Under the pieces are notes generated by a model. That model had not been told where the DNA came from, did not search any database, and saw only the letters and a program-made list of their open reading frames with translations. From Verrucomicrobiota bacterium (GTDB taxonomy: Bacteria > Verrucomicrobiota > Verrucomicrobiia > Limisphaerales > CANJXF01): DNA of 49,047 nt. The position numbers and the translations under genes were made by a program. Position 1 is the first letter of the stretch. Every line of letters begins with the position of its first letter. Location: positions 1 through 49,047 of the forward strand of contig JBBQRQ010000029.1 in NCBI GenBank assembly GCA_038214755.1, given 5' to 3'. This document shows, piece by piece, positions 2,211 through 7,983 of the stretch.

Positions 2211-5200
2211 ATGAGTAAATCTTCAAATCGAATTGAGCGGCTGGAAAAATTGTTGCGCGAACGGATCATCATCATCGACGGAGCGATGGGCACGATGATC
2301 CAGCAACGAAATTTATCGGAAAAAGATTTTCGCGGAGAACGCTGGGCCGAGTGGAAAGGGAAAGACCTCAAAGGGAACAACGACCTCCTCAACCTCACTC
2401 AGCCGAAAATCATCGAAGAAATTCATCGGCAATATCTCGAAGCGGGCGCGGATATCGTTGAGACGAACACTTTCAACTCTCAGGCAATTTCGCTCGCGGA
2501 TTATGGATTGGAGTCGCTCGCCTACGAATTGGCGCGCGCCGGAGCGGAGTGCGCGCGTCGCGCTGCTGATGCCGTTGAGAAAGGAAATCCCGACCGCATT
2601 TGTTTCGTCGCGGGGGCGATCGGGCCGACCACGAAGACCACTTCCATCTCGACGGACGTGAACAATCCGGCGGCGCGCGGCACGACTTACGACGAATTAG
2701 TGACCGCATATGCAGAACAAATTCGCGGCCTCCTCGATGGCGGCGCGGACATTCTTCTGGTCGAAACCATTTTCGACACGCTGAATGCGAAGGCCGCGTT
2801 TTTCGCGGTGGAAAAAGTTTTTGAGGAGCGCGGAATTGAAACGGTTCCATTCCAACCATCCCTTGCTCAATCGCCAAAGGGCAATCGCCAAAGGGCAATC
2901 GCCAATCGCCAATCCCAAATCCCCATCATGGCGTCGGTCACGTTCATCCAAGCGGGAAGCAATCGTGGCGTGACGGGGCAAACGGTCGAAGCCTTTTGGA
3001 ATTCCATTTCGCACGTGCCGCTATTGAGCGTCGGAATGAACTGCGCGCTCGGGCCAAAAGAAATGCGGCCGCTCATCGAGGAGCTTTCAAAAATCGCGCC
3101 TATTCCGGTGAGTTGTTATCCGAACGCCGGTTTGCCCAATCCACTTTTGCCGACAGGTTTTCCTGAGACGCCCGAATCGCTCGCGCCTCAATTGGAAGAT
3201 TGGGCGAAAAACGGTTGGCTGAATTTAGTGGGCGGTTGCTGTGGCACGACGCCGGAACATATCAAAATGATCGCCGACGCCGTGCGAGATTTGCCGCCGC
3301 GCGTGCCGCCGATCGTGGAACCTTTTCTACGGCTCAGCGGCTTGGACGCGCTCACCGTGACGCCGCAAACCAATTTTGTGAACGTGGGCGAGCGAACGAA
3401 CGTCACTGGCTCGCCGAAGTTCTCCAAACTGATTCTCGAAGGAAAGTATGAGGAAGCGCTTACGGTCGCGAAGCAACAAGTGGTCAACGGCGCGCAAATC
3501 ATCGACGTGAACATGGACGAAGGGATGCTTGATGGCGTCAAGGCGATGACCCATTTTCTGAATCTCATCGCGAGTGAGCCGGACATTTCTCGCGTGCCGA
3601 TCATGGTTGATTCCTCGAAATGGTCGGTAATCGAGGCGGGGCTGAAATGCGTTCAAGGCAAAGGCATCGTCAATTCGATTTCGTTAAAAGAAGGCGAGGC
3701 GAAATTTATCGAGCAGGCAAAACTCGTTCGACGCTACGGCGCTGCCGTCGTGGTGATGGCATTTGATGAACGCGGCCAGGCGGATTCATTCGAGCGCAAA
3801 ATAGAAGTGTGCCAACACGCCTACGAAATTCTCACGCAGCGCGTCGGGTTCCCGCCAGAAGATATTATTTTCGATCCGAACATTCTCACCGTCGCAACCG
3901 GCATGGATGAACACAACAATTACGCGGTGGATTTCATTCGCGCGACGAAGTGGATCAAAGAAAATCTCCCACGCGCAAAAGTCAGCGGCGGCATCAGCAA
4001 TATTTCATTTTCGTTTCGAGGCAACAATGTCGTGCGCGAAGCGATGCACAGCGCATTTCTTTATCATGCCATTCAGGCCGGATTGGACATGGGCATCGTC
4101 AACGCAGGCATGCTCGAAGTTTATGCGGAAATTCCAAAAGACCTTCTCGAATTGGTCGAGGACGTTTTGCTGAACCGCAAACCCGACGCGACGGAACGCC
4201 TGGTGAAATTTGCCGAGTCCGTGAAGAAAAAAGACAAGGCGGAAGTTGTCGCGGACGAGTGGCGCAGCGGTTCGGTGGAAGAACGTCTCAGTCACGCCCT
4301 CGTGAAAGGAGTGGTTGATTTCATCGAGGTGGACATTGAAGAGGCGCGACAAAAATACGAGCGCCCGCTGATGGTGATCGAAGGGCCGCTCATGGCCGGG
4401 ATGAATGTCGTCGGAGATTTATTCGGTTCCGGGAAAATGTTTTTGCCGCAAGTGGTCAAGTCCGCCCGCGTGATGAAAAAGGCCGTGGCGTATCTTCTTC
4501 CGTTCATGGAAGCCGAGAAGGCGCGAACGCGGCGCATTCGCGAGTTGCGTTTGCTGGCGCGGAAATTGCACGGGGAAACGGTCACACTCATCGAAGGTTT
4601 CACTTACACACCTCACCCCGAACTGACCGAGAAAGAACGTCTGATGGAACAAAAATTCGCCGCCGAATTGGCCGCCGATCTCGAAGGGGCGGCCAGACGT
4701 TACGAGGCTGAATTTGCCAACGTGTTTGACCGCAACAACGCGCAGGAACTTAGCCCGGATTACGCGGCCAGCCGCGAAAGCCGCCAGCGATGGAGCGTGG
4801 CGACTCTTGGTCCTGCCGGGGGATTTATCGACTGGCTGTATCAAAGGAGGATTGAACAATTGCCGCCAGAAAGTTTGATTGCATTCAACGCGGGAGGGCA
4901 GGGCAGCGGCAAGACCACCGCGACCCGGCAGGCGGAGGTTGAGCGCGCCGCCAATATTTTGATGGATGGCACATTGCAGGATGAAGTGCGAAGCCGCCAG
5001 CATATCAAAGCTGCGCTCGAAAGGGGCCATGTGGCTCATATCCGGTTCGTTTATTGCCCGTGGGACAAAGCGGTGGTCAATATCCTGCGCCGAGCCGCGA
5101 AGGAAACCGGCCGTATCGTTCCATTGTCCCGCGCGGTCGGAGGGCATTTTCGATCGGCGAGAAATGTCCTCTCGCTCGACCAAAATAAGCCGTCGAACAA

Positions 5201-7091
5201 AGGAAGGTTTGAACTTTTTGTCTTCGACAATACGGACTTTGCCAATCCTAAATTGCAGAACTTGGAGTGGCTTCGTAAACACCTGCACAAGTCCACTAAA
5301 ATTCTCCTTGAAACCGGGCGCACAGTAGCAGAAAATTATCTCCATGAAAACAGCGACGATCCAGACTTCAATTCCGAGGAAATTCGATACGGATTCTTCC
5401 AAACGACCGAGCATCGAGGAACGGATTCACCAGCTCAACGAAGCGACGTTGTTGGTTCTCCGACGAGCGGGATTAGCTCGCAAGCTGAAGGAAGAGCAGG
5501 AGCAGCAGGAGAAACTGGCCGCGACCTCCCGCTAATCGAAAGCGACAAAGCCGGACGCATCCTCCTTGCCACCGTCAAAGGCGACGTGCATGACATCGGC
5601 AAAAATATTGTAGGTGTCGTGCTCGCTTGTAATAACTACGAAGTCATAGATCTCGGCGTGATGGTTCCGTGCGAAAAAATTCTCCAGACCGCGCGCGAAC
5701 TGAATGTGGACATCATCGGCTTGAGCGGATTGATCACGCCCTCGCTGGACGAGATGGCGCACGTCGCCAAAGAAATGGAGCGGCAAGGTTTTAAAATTCC
5801 ATTGCTCATTGGCGGCGCGACGACAAGCAAAGCTCACACCGCCGTGAAAATTGCGCCGGGATATTCCGAGGCAGTGGTGCATGTGCTCGATGCCTCGCGC
5901 GCCGTGCCGATTGTGGGAAGCTTGATCAGCGGAGAGCAAAAACCCGCTTTCATCGCAACGATCCGAAATGAATATGATCGGCTCCGCTCGCAACACGCCG
6001 GACAAAAAACAAAACTTCTAAACCTCGAGGGCGCCCGAGCGAATGCGCCTCAATTAAAATACGACAATTTGCCGCGACCAGAATTCGTCGGTGTGCGAGC
6101 GCTGACCGATGTTTCGTTAAGCGCACTTCGCGAGTTCATTGATTGGTCGCCATTTTTTCACACGTGGGAATTGCGGGGACGTTATCCGGCAATTTTGCAG
6201 CATGAAAAATACGGCGAAGAAGCGCGCAAACTTTTTGCCGATGCGCAAAAACTCCTGGATCAAATCGTTGAGAAAAAACTTTTGCAACCGCGCGGCGTGT
6301 ATGGATTTTTTCCAGCCAATCGCGTCGGAGACGACGTGGAACTTTACGGCGAAGAATCGCGGACGAAAGCGCTGACGACTTTCCATTTCCTGCGCCAACA
6401 AATTGAAAAGCCAAAAGGACAATCCAATTATTGTCTTGCCGATTTCGTCGCGCCGAAAAGTAGAACAGACGTCTCGCCTGTCCAGGGAGGGGCAGGCGAG
6501 ACGCCCACCCTACTTTCAGATTATCTCGGCGCGTTTGCCGTTACGAGCGGCCACGGACTGAAGGAACTGACAGAAAAATTCAAAGCAGATCACGACGACT
6601 ACAACGCGATCATGGCTGAGGCGCTCGCTGATCGCCTGGCCGAGGCCTTCGCCGAATATTTGCACCAACGGGTTCGCCAAGAATGGGGTTTTGGCAAAAA
6701 CGAAAATTTTAAAGTCGAAGAGTTGCTCGAAGAAAAATATCGCGGCATTCGTCCGGCAGCCGGTTATCCCGCCTGCCCCGATCACACCGAGAAAAAAATT
6801 CTGTGGGAGCTTCTTCAGCCGGACAAAAATGCCGGCATTCAAATCACGGAAAACTTTGCCATGTGGCCGGGCAGCAGCGTAAGTGGGCTTTATTTCGCGC
6901 ATCCCGAATCAAAATATTTCGCGGTGGGCAAACTCGGACGCGACCAGATTCTCGATTATCATTTGCGCAAAGGAATGACGGTTCAGGAAGTGGAACGCTG
7001 GCTTGGACCGTATCTAAATTACGAACCCAATCAGAAAGAAAACGCGCCGACGGAGACCCGGAAAGCCTGTGCGTGTGGCCTATCCCACTGA
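2211..7091 (+). CDS. metH: Cobalamin-dependent methionine synthase with three in-frame insertions (1626 aa)
   Basis: [16 protein letters not shown] and GGCCGT (homocysteine domain); [11 protein letters not shown] (pterin domain); [14 protein letters not shown] (cap); [10 protein letters not shown] and [10 protein letters not shown] (B12-binding); [12 protein letters not shown] (activation domain). Confidence 0.97.
2868..2923. repeat. Heptamer tandem repeat (CAATCGC/CAAAGGG, 8 units) inside metH
   Basis: caatcgc caaaggg caatcgc caaaggg caatcgc caatcgc caatccc aaatccc, translated as [18 protein letters not shown]. Confidence 0.85.
4521..5546 (+). other. In-frame inserted P-loop NTPase/kinase domain (zeta-toxin-like) within metH, about aa 771-1112
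   Basis: Lies between LLPFMEAEK and [16 protein letters not shown]; Walker [10 protein letters not shown] (4893-4919), ILMDGTL, RRA..TGRIVP, FVFDNT. Confidence 0.8.
5344..5535 (+). CDS. Candidate 63-aa helical protein overlapping metH in the +1 frame (possible partner or antitoxin of the inserted domain)
   Basis: ATG start; amphipathic [37 protein letters not shown]; stops about 11 nt before MetH homology resumes. Confidence 0.4.
6457..6516. repeat. REPIN-like palindrome in frame in the metH activation domain
   Basis: aaaGTAGaacagacgtctcgcctgtcc ... gggcaggcgagacgcccaccCTACttt, 60 bp, translated as [20 protein letters not shown]. Confidence 0.8.
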
Positions 7092-7248
7092 TATTCTCTT
7101 TGCCCAGAATAGTTTTCTGAAAAGACCTCGTGCGGATGGAACGCCGAACTCCGGTCCGGCTCGTGACGGAGAATTTGGCGTCGGGACGATGGGAAAATCA
7201 GCGCTCCTATCTGGAATTTATTTCGGCAACCGTTCTATTTTGTTCAGA

Positions 7249-7983
7249 GTGAAATCACTAATTTTTATTTCCGTCGCGCTCTCGTCACTGTTGACGCGGG
7301 GTTCCTTCGCCGCCGACACGAACAAGGCGGACGCGGCAAAAGTAATCGTGGCGGTCGCTCAAGCCGACGGTGAACTCAAAGGAATTCCCTTCGCAGATGT
7401 CGTCAAAGCCACCACCGGGAAAAAGATTTTATCGTTTGATCTCACCAACGAAGCTGACCGCGAACTGCTCGCCAAAATTGGCGCGGCGATGGACGAAGTA
7501 ATGACGCGAATGAATGCCACGAACAGCGTCGCGCAAAAACAAAAACGCATTAACGAAGTGAGCAGTCATTTTGAAAATGAAATCAAACAAGTGCTAAATG
7601 GGACGCCCGGTTTTTCCTGCGACATTCCGCGTCTGGCTTCGGGCAAGGTGCAGCGATCCGGGTATCCTGATTTGCGGCTGGTCGATAAAAAGACCGGGCG
7701 CATCGTTTACATTGATCCGAAACTTTACGCGCAAGGGAGCCGTTCCAGCAGCTTCCGCACTTTTTATTTCGAGCCAAAAACCGACACGAACAAGATTCTC
7801 GATGACGCTTGTCATCTGATTGTGGGCTTCGAGCACGACGGGCGAAAAAGCGGCGAGTGGAAATTTTTGAGTTGGGAGTTGATCGATTTGTCGCAGTTCA
7901 AAGTGCGATTGAAAGCGGAATTCCAAGGGAGCAATCGCGATCTGTATCAAGAGGCCGCCATCGTCGGAACCAGCCGGAAATAA
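7249..7983 (+). CDS. Hypothetical exported protein with a PD-(D/E)xK-like motif
   Basis: The GTG at 7249 gives the signal peptide MKSLIFISVALSSLLTRGSFA; GYPD-x13-IDPK; the ORF-track start at 7069 overlaps metH and is unlikely. Confidence 0.7.
   Translation: MKSLIFISVALSSLLTRGSFAADTNKADAAKVIVAVAQADGELKGIPFADVVKATTGKKILSFDLTNEADRELLAKIGAAMDEVMTRMNATNSVAQKQKRINEVSSHFENEIKQVLNGTPGFSCDIPRLASGKVQRSGYPDLRLVDKKTGRIVYIDPKLYAQGSRSSSFRTFYFEPKTDTNKILDDACHLIVGFEHDGRKSGEWKFLSWELIDLSQFKVRLKAEFQGSNRDLYQEAAIVGTSRK

Follow-up and report, generated by a model that had tools for sequence, protein, structure and literature searches.

The 49,047-nucleotide (nt) contig JBBQRQ010000029.1 of a Verrucomicrobiota bacterium (assembly GCA_038214755.1; this whole stretch of DNA is referred to below as the window) carries metH as an uninterrupted open reading frame (ORF) of 1626 amino acids (aa) on the plus strand (2211..7091), into which a domain of ~340 residues is inserted in frame. 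By equivalog profiles and module content, the ORF is assigned to cobalamin-dependent methionine synthase, MetH: the two NCBIfam metH equivalogs score 2010.8 bits (NF007024, cut-off 1497) and 1680.6 bits (TIGR02082, cut-off 1010.85), and Pfam finds all five MetH modules (Hcy, Fol, Cap, Cob and Act) in order, all intact. These are, on the same strand, the homocysteine S-methyltransferase module (aa 20-358, 2268..3284; PF02574, S-methyl_trans, E 7.6e-92), the pterin/folate-binding module (aa 393-631, 3387..4103; PF00809, Pterin_bind, E 2.6e-64), the cap domain (aa 689-770, 4275..4520; PF02607, B12-binding_2, over aa 689-762, together with an AlphaFold2 (AF2) model), the B12-binding or Cob domain with its DxHDxGK motif (5553..5960; PF02310, B12-binding, aa 1115-1209) and the reactivation or AdoMet domain (6117..6974; PF02965, Met_synt_B12, aa 1303-1588, E 6e-121). 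The cobalamin-ligating DxHxxG motif of the Cob domain reads GDVHDIGK (aa 1123-1130).

The inserted domain and its place in MetH

The insert occupies aa 771-1112 (4521..5546), between the cap, whose motif LLPFMEAEK ends at aa 770, and the B12 domain, whose start motif lies at aa 1115. An earlier reading of the DNA from its letters alone (the sequence-only reading) had placed a ~340-aa in-frame insert at this point, and the motifs that it quoted are all present, among them a Walker segment at aa 895-903 and FVFDNT. In 14 insert-less MetH proteins of the same class, the distance from the end of the cap to DxHDxGK is 17-23 aa, as opposed to 356-367 aa in three insert-bearing genomes; since this spacing is short in insert-less relatives, the extra residues are real. 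The same architecture was found in the best 120 of 159 matches among independent protein clusters (E<=1e-3), all but 3 with a precomputed PF06414 match, and in 95 records of a species-genome collection, isolates included. Additionally, a 1225-nt contig made with a different assembler extends over both junctions (4375-5599) and shows 0 differences; as it derives from the probable source sample, it does not count as an independent sample. Because the architecture recurs independently and a contig crosses both junctions, an assembly chimera is excluded. Nor is the insert an intein, in agreement with the sequence-only reading: the Pfam scan of MetH yielded no intein or Hint family at E<=1, and there is no Cys/Ser/Thr plus His-Asn splice-junction pattern, the C-terminal junction reading IESD/KAGR (slash at the junction).

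Three parts of the insert can be told apart. The N-block (aa 771-902, 4521..4916) is conserved between alleles and comprises a basic helix, a beta-hairpin, an acceptor-site block containing D840-R841-N842 (4728..4736), and strand beta1 with the P-loop, where the motif pattern and the alignment place a Walker A sequence, GGQGSGKT, with the P-loop lysine K901 (4893..4916). The part after the P-loop, here termed the C-half (aa 903-1065, 4917..5405), holds MDGT (D919), R961, G967-R968, G978-H979 and D1006-N1007. A low-complexity tether of ~45 aa follows (aa 1066-1112, 5406..5546), for which the predicted local distance difference test score (pLDDT) is <50 and the median ratio of nonsynonymous to synonymous divergence (omega, dN/dS) is about 1.2.

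The family assignment made in the sequence-only reading, a zeta-toxin-like P-loop domain, was borne out, while the AAA_33 resemblance suggested alongside it was not, with no Pfam match to AAA_33 in MetH at E<=1. Pfam Zeta_toxin (PF06414) matches aa 907-992 at E 1.3e-8 and 35 bits in the whole protein (cut-off 22.3) and at 38.3 bits when the insert is searched alone, with the match confined to profile positions 89-176. A single-sequence search of the insert against Protein Data Bank (PDB) sequences gave a chance match only. With a profile built from the insert and 55 relatives (A1; 54 short proteins of 151-371 aa plus P0122, a piece of a MetH), the PDB entries 6EPH and 6EPG of ng_zeta1 were matched at E 1e-26 over chain residues 20-280, the D56 block included; MetH proteins matched by this profile were set aside as an artefact of the MetH part of P0122. 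The AF2 model of the insert (pLDDT 86.5, predicted template-modelling score (pTM) 0.80, last 42 residues disordered) has a zeta-kinase fold. Its best Foldseek matches are 6EPG/6EPH/6EPI (E 3.8e-10, query-normalized TM-score (TMq) 0.66 over 283 columns, sequence identity 13-15%), followed by zeta, AvrRxo1 and PezT at E about 1e-4. No MeaB or MMAA chain is among the matches listed in either the profile or the fold search, and the fold is thus not that of a SIMIBI GTPase. By profile and predicted fold, the insert is a zeta-family P-loop domain of the rewired ng_zeta1 type and forms a distinct subtype, which we call DRN.

The closest known structure, ng_zeta1, belongs to the epsilon1/zeta1 pair of Neisseria gonorrhoeae and is described as a zeta toxin of rewired topology that adds phosphate to the C4'-OH of uridine diphosphate (UDP)-sugars, with Asp56 as the likely base, K115 as the P-loop Lys, R175 and R181 as a phosphate-binding patch, and K59 and N75 touching UDP-N-acetylmuramic acid (UNAM; Rocker et al., PMC5923241). 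Like the insert, ng_zeta1 has its acceptor-site block N-terminal to the P-loop. The profile alignment pairs K115 with K901, E133 with D919, R175 with R961 and R181 with R968, equivalents that the insert keeps; in contrast, D56 is paired with N842 and K59 with Q845. The insert also differs in having no C-terminal oligonucleotide/oligosaccharide-binding (OB) domain and no epsilon1-like antitoxin gene, and in being embedded in an enzyme rather than encoded as a plasmid toxin-antitoxin gene. The classical UDP-N-acetylglucosamine (UDP-GlcNAc) 3'-kinase toxins zeta and PezT, as well as AvrRxo1, share PF06414 membership and fold with the insert, which is set apart from classical zeta/PezT by the rewired topology, the missing catalytic Asp, the lack of an antitoxin and the partial Pfam match.

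The six insert residues K901, D919, R961, R968, N842 and Q845 are invariant in all 81 MetH-embedded copies (53-80% overall identity to aa 640-1250 of the window protein), as are the P-loop and the DGT motif as wholes; a Walker A pattern matches 119/121 sequences. R961 and R968 provide the arginine patch or lid that characterizes the zeta family; by alignment, Asn842 stands where zeta (D67), PezT (D66) and ng_zeta1 (D56) have the catalytic Asp. Among the 148 representative relatives that are not part of the first set, Asp occupies the D56 column in 141 and Asn in 5, the latter being three MetH fragments, P0126 and P0137. For PezT, the D66T substitution is reported to abolish both kinase activity and toxicity (PMC3062530). 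As judged from these alignments, the embedded domain is one that keeps its nucleotide site without the canonical catalytic base. Lacking the catalytic Asp, it is unlikely to be a UDP-sugar 3'/4'-kinase toxin of the classical kind, and the label "toxin" given in the sequence-only reading is not supported: Asn replaces the Asp in every embedded copy, and no conserved antitoxin-like neighbour is seen. In terms of sequence, the insert is without two defining features of these toxins, the catalytic Asp and a cognate antitoxin. Two residues upstream of N842 lies D840, likewise invariant in the embedded copies, and in the model both flank the N-terminus of one short helix; the D840 column varies among the other relatives (68 with N, 53 with D, 22 with S) and is invariably D in the DRN clade.

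Large-scale domain motion has in MetH one of its textbook examples, with the Cap-Cob linker among the hinges. A second AF2 model, of aa 640-1250 (pLDDT 83.3, pTM 0.72), has an unbroken helix across the cap/insert junction (aa 745-785, model residues 106-146, pLDDT 78-90) and a disordered stretch at aa 1066-1110, and superposes on the cap-on Cap:Cob structure 1BMT with a target-normalized TM-score (TMt) of 0.75. The models suggest a domain that would sit rigidly on the final cap helix, with ~45 flexible residues tethering it to the B12 domain, an arrangement that would let the B12 domain go on shuttling between the other modules. MetH may therefore tolerate the insert because this rigid mount and tether leave the cap-on Cap:Cob module able to form.

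The sequence-only reading also mentioned DUF559-type cargo in MetH linkers and raised the prospect of a cargo-exchange hotspot between cap and B12 domain. This was not borne out: in the MetH proteins of the class examined, this linker holds either the zeta-like cassette or a short linker and nothing else. Other in-frame cargo does exist in insert-bearing verrucomicrobial MetH, at other linkers. A phosphoribosyltransferase (PRTase)-like segment lies between Cob and Act in P0018 and P0026, an IS200-like Y1_Tnp segment lies between Cob and Act in P0080 and inside Act in P0093 and P0103, and P0016 has ~150 extra residues between Hcy and Fol. The window MetH itself has a small Gln/Arg/Ser-rich extra segment inside the homocysteine-binding module (2847-2924, about aa 213-238), where the 283 positions of the PF02574 profile are stretched over 339 residues. 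MetH of this verrucomicrobial group seems prone to in-frame cargo at several linkers.

Distribution, relatives and genomic setting

In an even sample of the phylum, the insert was matched in 9/401 genomes (E<=1e-5), only 5 of them with MetH-type matches. In a sample of the class, Met_synt_B12 was found in 263/301 genomes and the insert in 9/301 (E<=1e-20); of these nine carriers, three belong to the order of the window genome (which is itself one of them), five to family f14 and one to family f8. Carriers bear the labels Prosthecobacter, Verrucomicrobiaceae, Akkermansiaceae, Opitutales, Pedosphaera, Chthoniobacterales, Verrucomicrobium and Haloferula. We also noted metagenome bins titled Klebsiella, Enterobacteriaceae and Spirochaetaceae that contain verrucomicrobial-type metH (L071, L106 and L121), titles that are probably binning or labelling errors. 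PF06414 was found in all 14 control genomes, and genome-wide counts of this family were uninformative and were not used.

The window genome has one metH and one copy of the insert: Met_synt_B12 is matched once only, by the insert-bearing gene, and the insert-bearing gene is the only such match in most other carriers too. The window genome additionally encodes a 357-aa MetE-like "core" protein (PF01717, 91.8 bits; G000:C25:16394-17419, minus strand), and MetH may not be its sole methionine route.

An exhaustive search of representative proteins found 1179 relatives with E<=1e-3, of which just 9 fell below 1e-30. Outside MetH, the domain occurs either by itself, in proteins of 250-330 aa, or within giant proteins, some of which carry LPD3, Kinase-PolyVal or ddrB-ParB domains. 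Apparent split or new architectures (zeta+Cob+Act, cap+zeta+Cob) in P0122, P0123, P0125 and P0284-P0286 turned out to be fragments or internal-start calls of ordinary insert-bearing MetH. The embedded copies are monophyletic, and their sister group is a stand-alone DRN family of 257-292 aa (P0126 and P0270-P0283; 15 clusters with 50-75% identity to P0126). Every stand-alone member that covers the site has the signature DRNNAQEL, and the P-loop is intact in all of them. In 3/3 metagenome loci with upstream sequence (L122, L123, L124), the stand-alone gene comes after an HTH_36/DnaD_N-like gene, with an overlap of 14-20 nt in two of the three; a phage-type integrase is present in one of the stand-alone loci and a 1593-aa AAA protein in another. 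The HTH_36-like and DRN genes may thus be a candidate undescribed two-gene module of mobile elements. Because the stand-alone family has the same signature away from metH, the DRN subtype is a distinct conserved kind that is older than, or independent of, embedding in MetH, with a mobile-element flavour.

The next-nearest relatives of the insert, at 30-38% identity, are the zeta-like domains of polyvalent proteins of conjugative elements and phages, and zeta-like kinases are described in conjugative elements of Verrucomicrobium (PMC5512222). These domains differ from the insert in keeping the catalytic Asp and in being part of injected mobile-element proteins rather than of a housekeeping enzyme. 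When plasmid and phage collections were searched with the insert by tblastn, nothing matched at E<=1e-8. With the stand-alone family, a scan of IMG/VR returned one distant relative (28% identity), and a scan of GTDB genomes returned MetH-embedded copies only (35-46% identity).

The neighbours of metH in the window are two xylose-isomerase-like genes of the triosephosphate isomerase (TIM)-barrel type, a 304-aa ORF, a cytidylyltransferase gene and a tadA-like deaminase gene; none is antitoxin-like or of mobile-element type, and no epsilon- or PezA-type cognate antitoxin gene was found adjoining metH. The 304-aa ORF (7069-7983, plus strand) overlaps the metH stop by 23 nt and has no Pfam family; it is not kept beside metH in the other carriers among 67 insert-bearing loci. 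At the contig start (1-130), long poly-C tracts (GC 0.64, GC skew -0.52) are probably an assembly-end or sequencing artefact rather than biology.

Gain, loss and exchange of insert alleles

A tree of the MetH core, built with FastTree after removal of the insert columns (103 rows, 14 of them insert-less), intersperses insert-bearing and insert-less genes, such that presence of the insert needs 11 changes, at least 7 of which are forced by well-supported branches. A lineage-wide, vertically inherited domesticated domain was dropped as an explanation on this interspersion and on the sparse distribution (9/401 and 9/301). The changes reach down to a single genus, g57, in which G369 and G601 have the full insert. 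In G342 (L029), compared with G369 (L028), the P-loop core of the insert has been lost through a 146-aa in-frame deletion. The flanks are 96-100% identical and the rest of MetH is intact; this allele is a natural knockout of the cassette's ATP site. G354, of the same genus, has no insert, and its core is nearer to that of G369 than the core of G601 is. The short linker of G354 resembles the insert-less MetH linkers of other families and is for that reason not a deletion scar; simple deletion was rejected as the origin of the insert-less alleles. In an approximately unbiased (AU) test on the insert alignment, two strongly supported clades of the core tree were rejected (p 0.0011 and 0.00016).

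Codon-level comparison of 50 full-length insert-bearing genes points to exchange of the insert, and above all of its C-half. For L043 and L051, dN and dS are 0.014 and 0.19 in the core and 0.286 and 0.86 in the insert, and nucleotide identity drops from 95.1% (core) and 93.8% (N-block) to 51.0% (C-half). Sliding windows over this pair give 92-98% in the core, 87-98% at aa 761-880, 41-74% at aa 881-1120 and then 98%, so that identity breaks just behind the P-loop and again close to the tail end. The reverse pattern is seen for L047 and L051, with nucleotide identities of 76.0% (core), 88.0% (N-block) and 94.0% (C-half). G351 (L026) and P0030 are 100% identical in the compared core columns and in the N-block, and 58% identical in the C-half, and in the window's own clade, P0002 and P0005 share 96.1% of the core, 95.6% of the N-block and 69.0% of the C-half. 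When the 50 genes were clustered at 70% identity, 3 core, 6 N-block and 29 C-half clusters were obtained. In the C-half, 22/158 columns are invariant, and these are the motif residues. From these comparisons, the C-half is hypervariable and swapped between alleles. As a separate observation, the low-complexity Hcy-Fol linker of G351 and P0030 also differs, by an indel and substitutions, in MetH proteins that are otherwise identical.

In pairs with orthologous-looking inserts, the insert fold has an omega of 0.08-0.15, compared with 0.03-0.1 in the core and about 1 in the tail; given the low omega in these pairs, the insert fold is under purifying selection while whole alleles are exchanged. 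The C-half diversity is best read as old alleles plus recombination, and not as proven diversifying selection. A diversity-generating retroelement or silent-cassette mechanism was rejected: the window genome has a single insert copy, and the alleles differ by indels as well as by changes at all bases. Decay does occur, as seen in the degenerate P-loop of P0137 and in the G342 deletion, and is rare.

Interpretation and alternatives

The explanation that we favour, and regard as probable, is that the insert is a non-splicing, in-frame cassette of mobile-element ancestry, seated in the Cap-Cob hinge of an otherwise intact MetH, optional and recombining. Homologous recombination within the conserved MetH sequence on either side would account for gain, loss and exchange of the cassette among metH alleles, a turnover that is unusual in a housekeeping enzyme; the C-half would persist as many deeply diverged allele classes, and the domain would keep its nucleotide-binding site under purifying selection. 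More tentatively, and with confidence that stops somewhat short of even, we suggest that the cassette binds ATP and is selected for a part in genetic conflict, or for its own persistence, and not for methionine synthesis, with metH as its safe harbour. The safe harbour is favoured over a co-adapted enzyme part because the cassette is optional, exchanged, polymorphic in one half and of mobile-element-like ancestry. The sequence-only reading had offered both, and its safe harbour for a module of toxin origin agrees with the patchy occurrence, the exchange and the mobile context of the relatives, while its domesticated enzyme part fits less well. A more specific version is speculative and rather doubtful: a toxin-derived conflict module, housed in an enzyme hinge instead of in its own operon, would spread between species through its flanks, and the C-half classes would record an arms race, for example with proteins of phages or conjugative elements. 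Such a module might link growth arrest or defence to the B12, methionine or S-adenosylmethionine (SAM) status of MetH.

Several observations weigh against these proposals. No partner, antitoxin or trigger gene was found for the cassette, and no neighbour of metH is conserved, the largest neighbour family occurring in 10/67 insert-bearing loci. With the insert, P0126 and P0130 as queries, PADLOC returned 0 families (E<=0.01), and PHROG gave no match. The status of the insert-bearing gene as the sole metH leaves room for a role of the insert in MetH function, D840 might stand in as the base, and the stand-alone DRN genes have a layout like that of toxin-antitoxin pairs, by analogy with which kinase or toxin activity may persist in the subtype. 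The trees were made with FastTree or quick IQ-TREE runs; the groups for the AU test were defined from the core tree, yet a quick insert tree had been seen before the test. Positive selection is not demonstrated, between-class omega being 0.3-0.45 with dS saturated.

Among the alternatives, a domesticated accessory domain of MetH would act as a switch, sensor or chaperone that depends on NTP and controls uncapping, B12 loading or reactivation, or as a nucleotide or UDP-sugar sensor that tunes methionine synthesis. The insert is always at one hinge, beside the B12 domain, and the model couples it rigidly to the cap helix. Its ATP site consists of invariant residues and shows purifying selection, the loss of the catalytic base recalls pseudokinase-type regulators, and the insert-bearing gene is the sole metH in most carriers. 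There is also a precedent in IcmF, described as an isobutyryl-CoA mutase fused to a P-loop G-protein chaperone (PMC10481361), where, as in MetH, a P-loop NTPase sits beside the B12-binding domain of a cobalamin enzyme. The likeness is one of analogy only: the IcmF chaperone, as described, is a SIMIBI GTPase and a fixed functional part, whereas the insert has a zeta-kinase fold and is an optional, polymorphic cassette. We consider an accessory role unlikely, given that the insert is present in 9/301 genomes of the class as against 263 with MetH, that it is absent or half-deleted inside one genus, and that deep C-half classes are swapped between near-identical cores, which is unexpected for a domain co-adapted to its enzyme; the DRN subtype also occurs stand-alone, away from metH, and the constant position is explained by a single origin.

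Less likely again is a small-molecule kinase or toxin that is still active, with the base shifted to D840 or with a new acceptor, either as an abortive-infection or addiction effector held in check inside MetH or as a kinase of nucleotide metabolites. This would account for the invariance of D840 in the DRN clade, where other relatives have a mixed N/D/S column, and for its modelled place beside N842 at the same helix end; the stand-alone DRN genes with their upstream helix-turn-helix (HTH) gene and operon-like overlap recall toxin-antitoxin pairs, and the hypervariable surface would fit an arms race with inhibitors. However, mutation of the equivalent Asp is reported to kill PezT activity (PMC3062530), the position of the UNAM-contacting Lys59 is Gln in all embedded copies, there is no conserved antitoxin-like neighbour or defence-family match, and constitutive fusion of an active cell-wall toxin to a housekeeping enzyme would need a silencing mechanism. 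A neutral passenger, that is, a toxin remnant retained since imprecise deletion would break an important gene, would agree with the dispensability of the insert in G342 and G354, the neutral evolution of the tail and the patchy distribution. It is nevertheless very improbable in view of ATP-site and motif residues that are invariant in 81/81 copies at 53-80% overall identity, omega of 0.08-0.15 in orthologous-looking pairs, and the rarity of decay. An intein or assembly artefact has a negligible probability, there being no Hint or intein family and no splice-junction pattern, and the architecture being shared by independent assemblies and isolate genomes, with a contig across both junctions.

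If the favoured reading of a recombining cassette is right, two known kinds of system invite comparison. Like inteins, the cassette is an in-frame passenger at a conserved site of an important gene, patchy in occurrence and spread through conserved flanks; unlike them, it has no Hint domain, splice junctions or homing endonuclease, and the mature protein would retain the domain at a hinge between two of its modules. The second kind, polymorphic-toxin and other cassette-swapping loci, has a conserved 5' part and a sharply bounded variable part with many allele classes exchanged by recombination. The cassette resembles them in its conserved 5' part and swapped variable part, and differs in being internal to a housekeeping enzyme, in keeping the same fold and motifs and in having no adjacent immunity gene.

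No description of a MetH with a zeta-type domain was found in the literature searched, including, by whole-word term search of its text, a 2023 review of PezAT, and no paper combining 'methionine synthase' and 'zeta toxin' was found there; within the reach of that literature, the insert-bearing architecture is not in print. For the enzymology of MetH, a natural insertion of 340 residues shows how much the Cap-Cob hinge tolerates, and metH alleles with the insert, without it and with half of it deleted provide natural pairs. For the biology of toxin-antitoxin systems and mobile elements, the family presents a zeta-type kinase domain that has left its operon, lost the canonical catalytic base and persists as a recombining, polymorphic cassette in a housekeeping gene. 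If the polymorphism does reflect a conflict function, such modules can hide in core metabolic genes, outside the view of defence-island and toxin-antitoxin searches.

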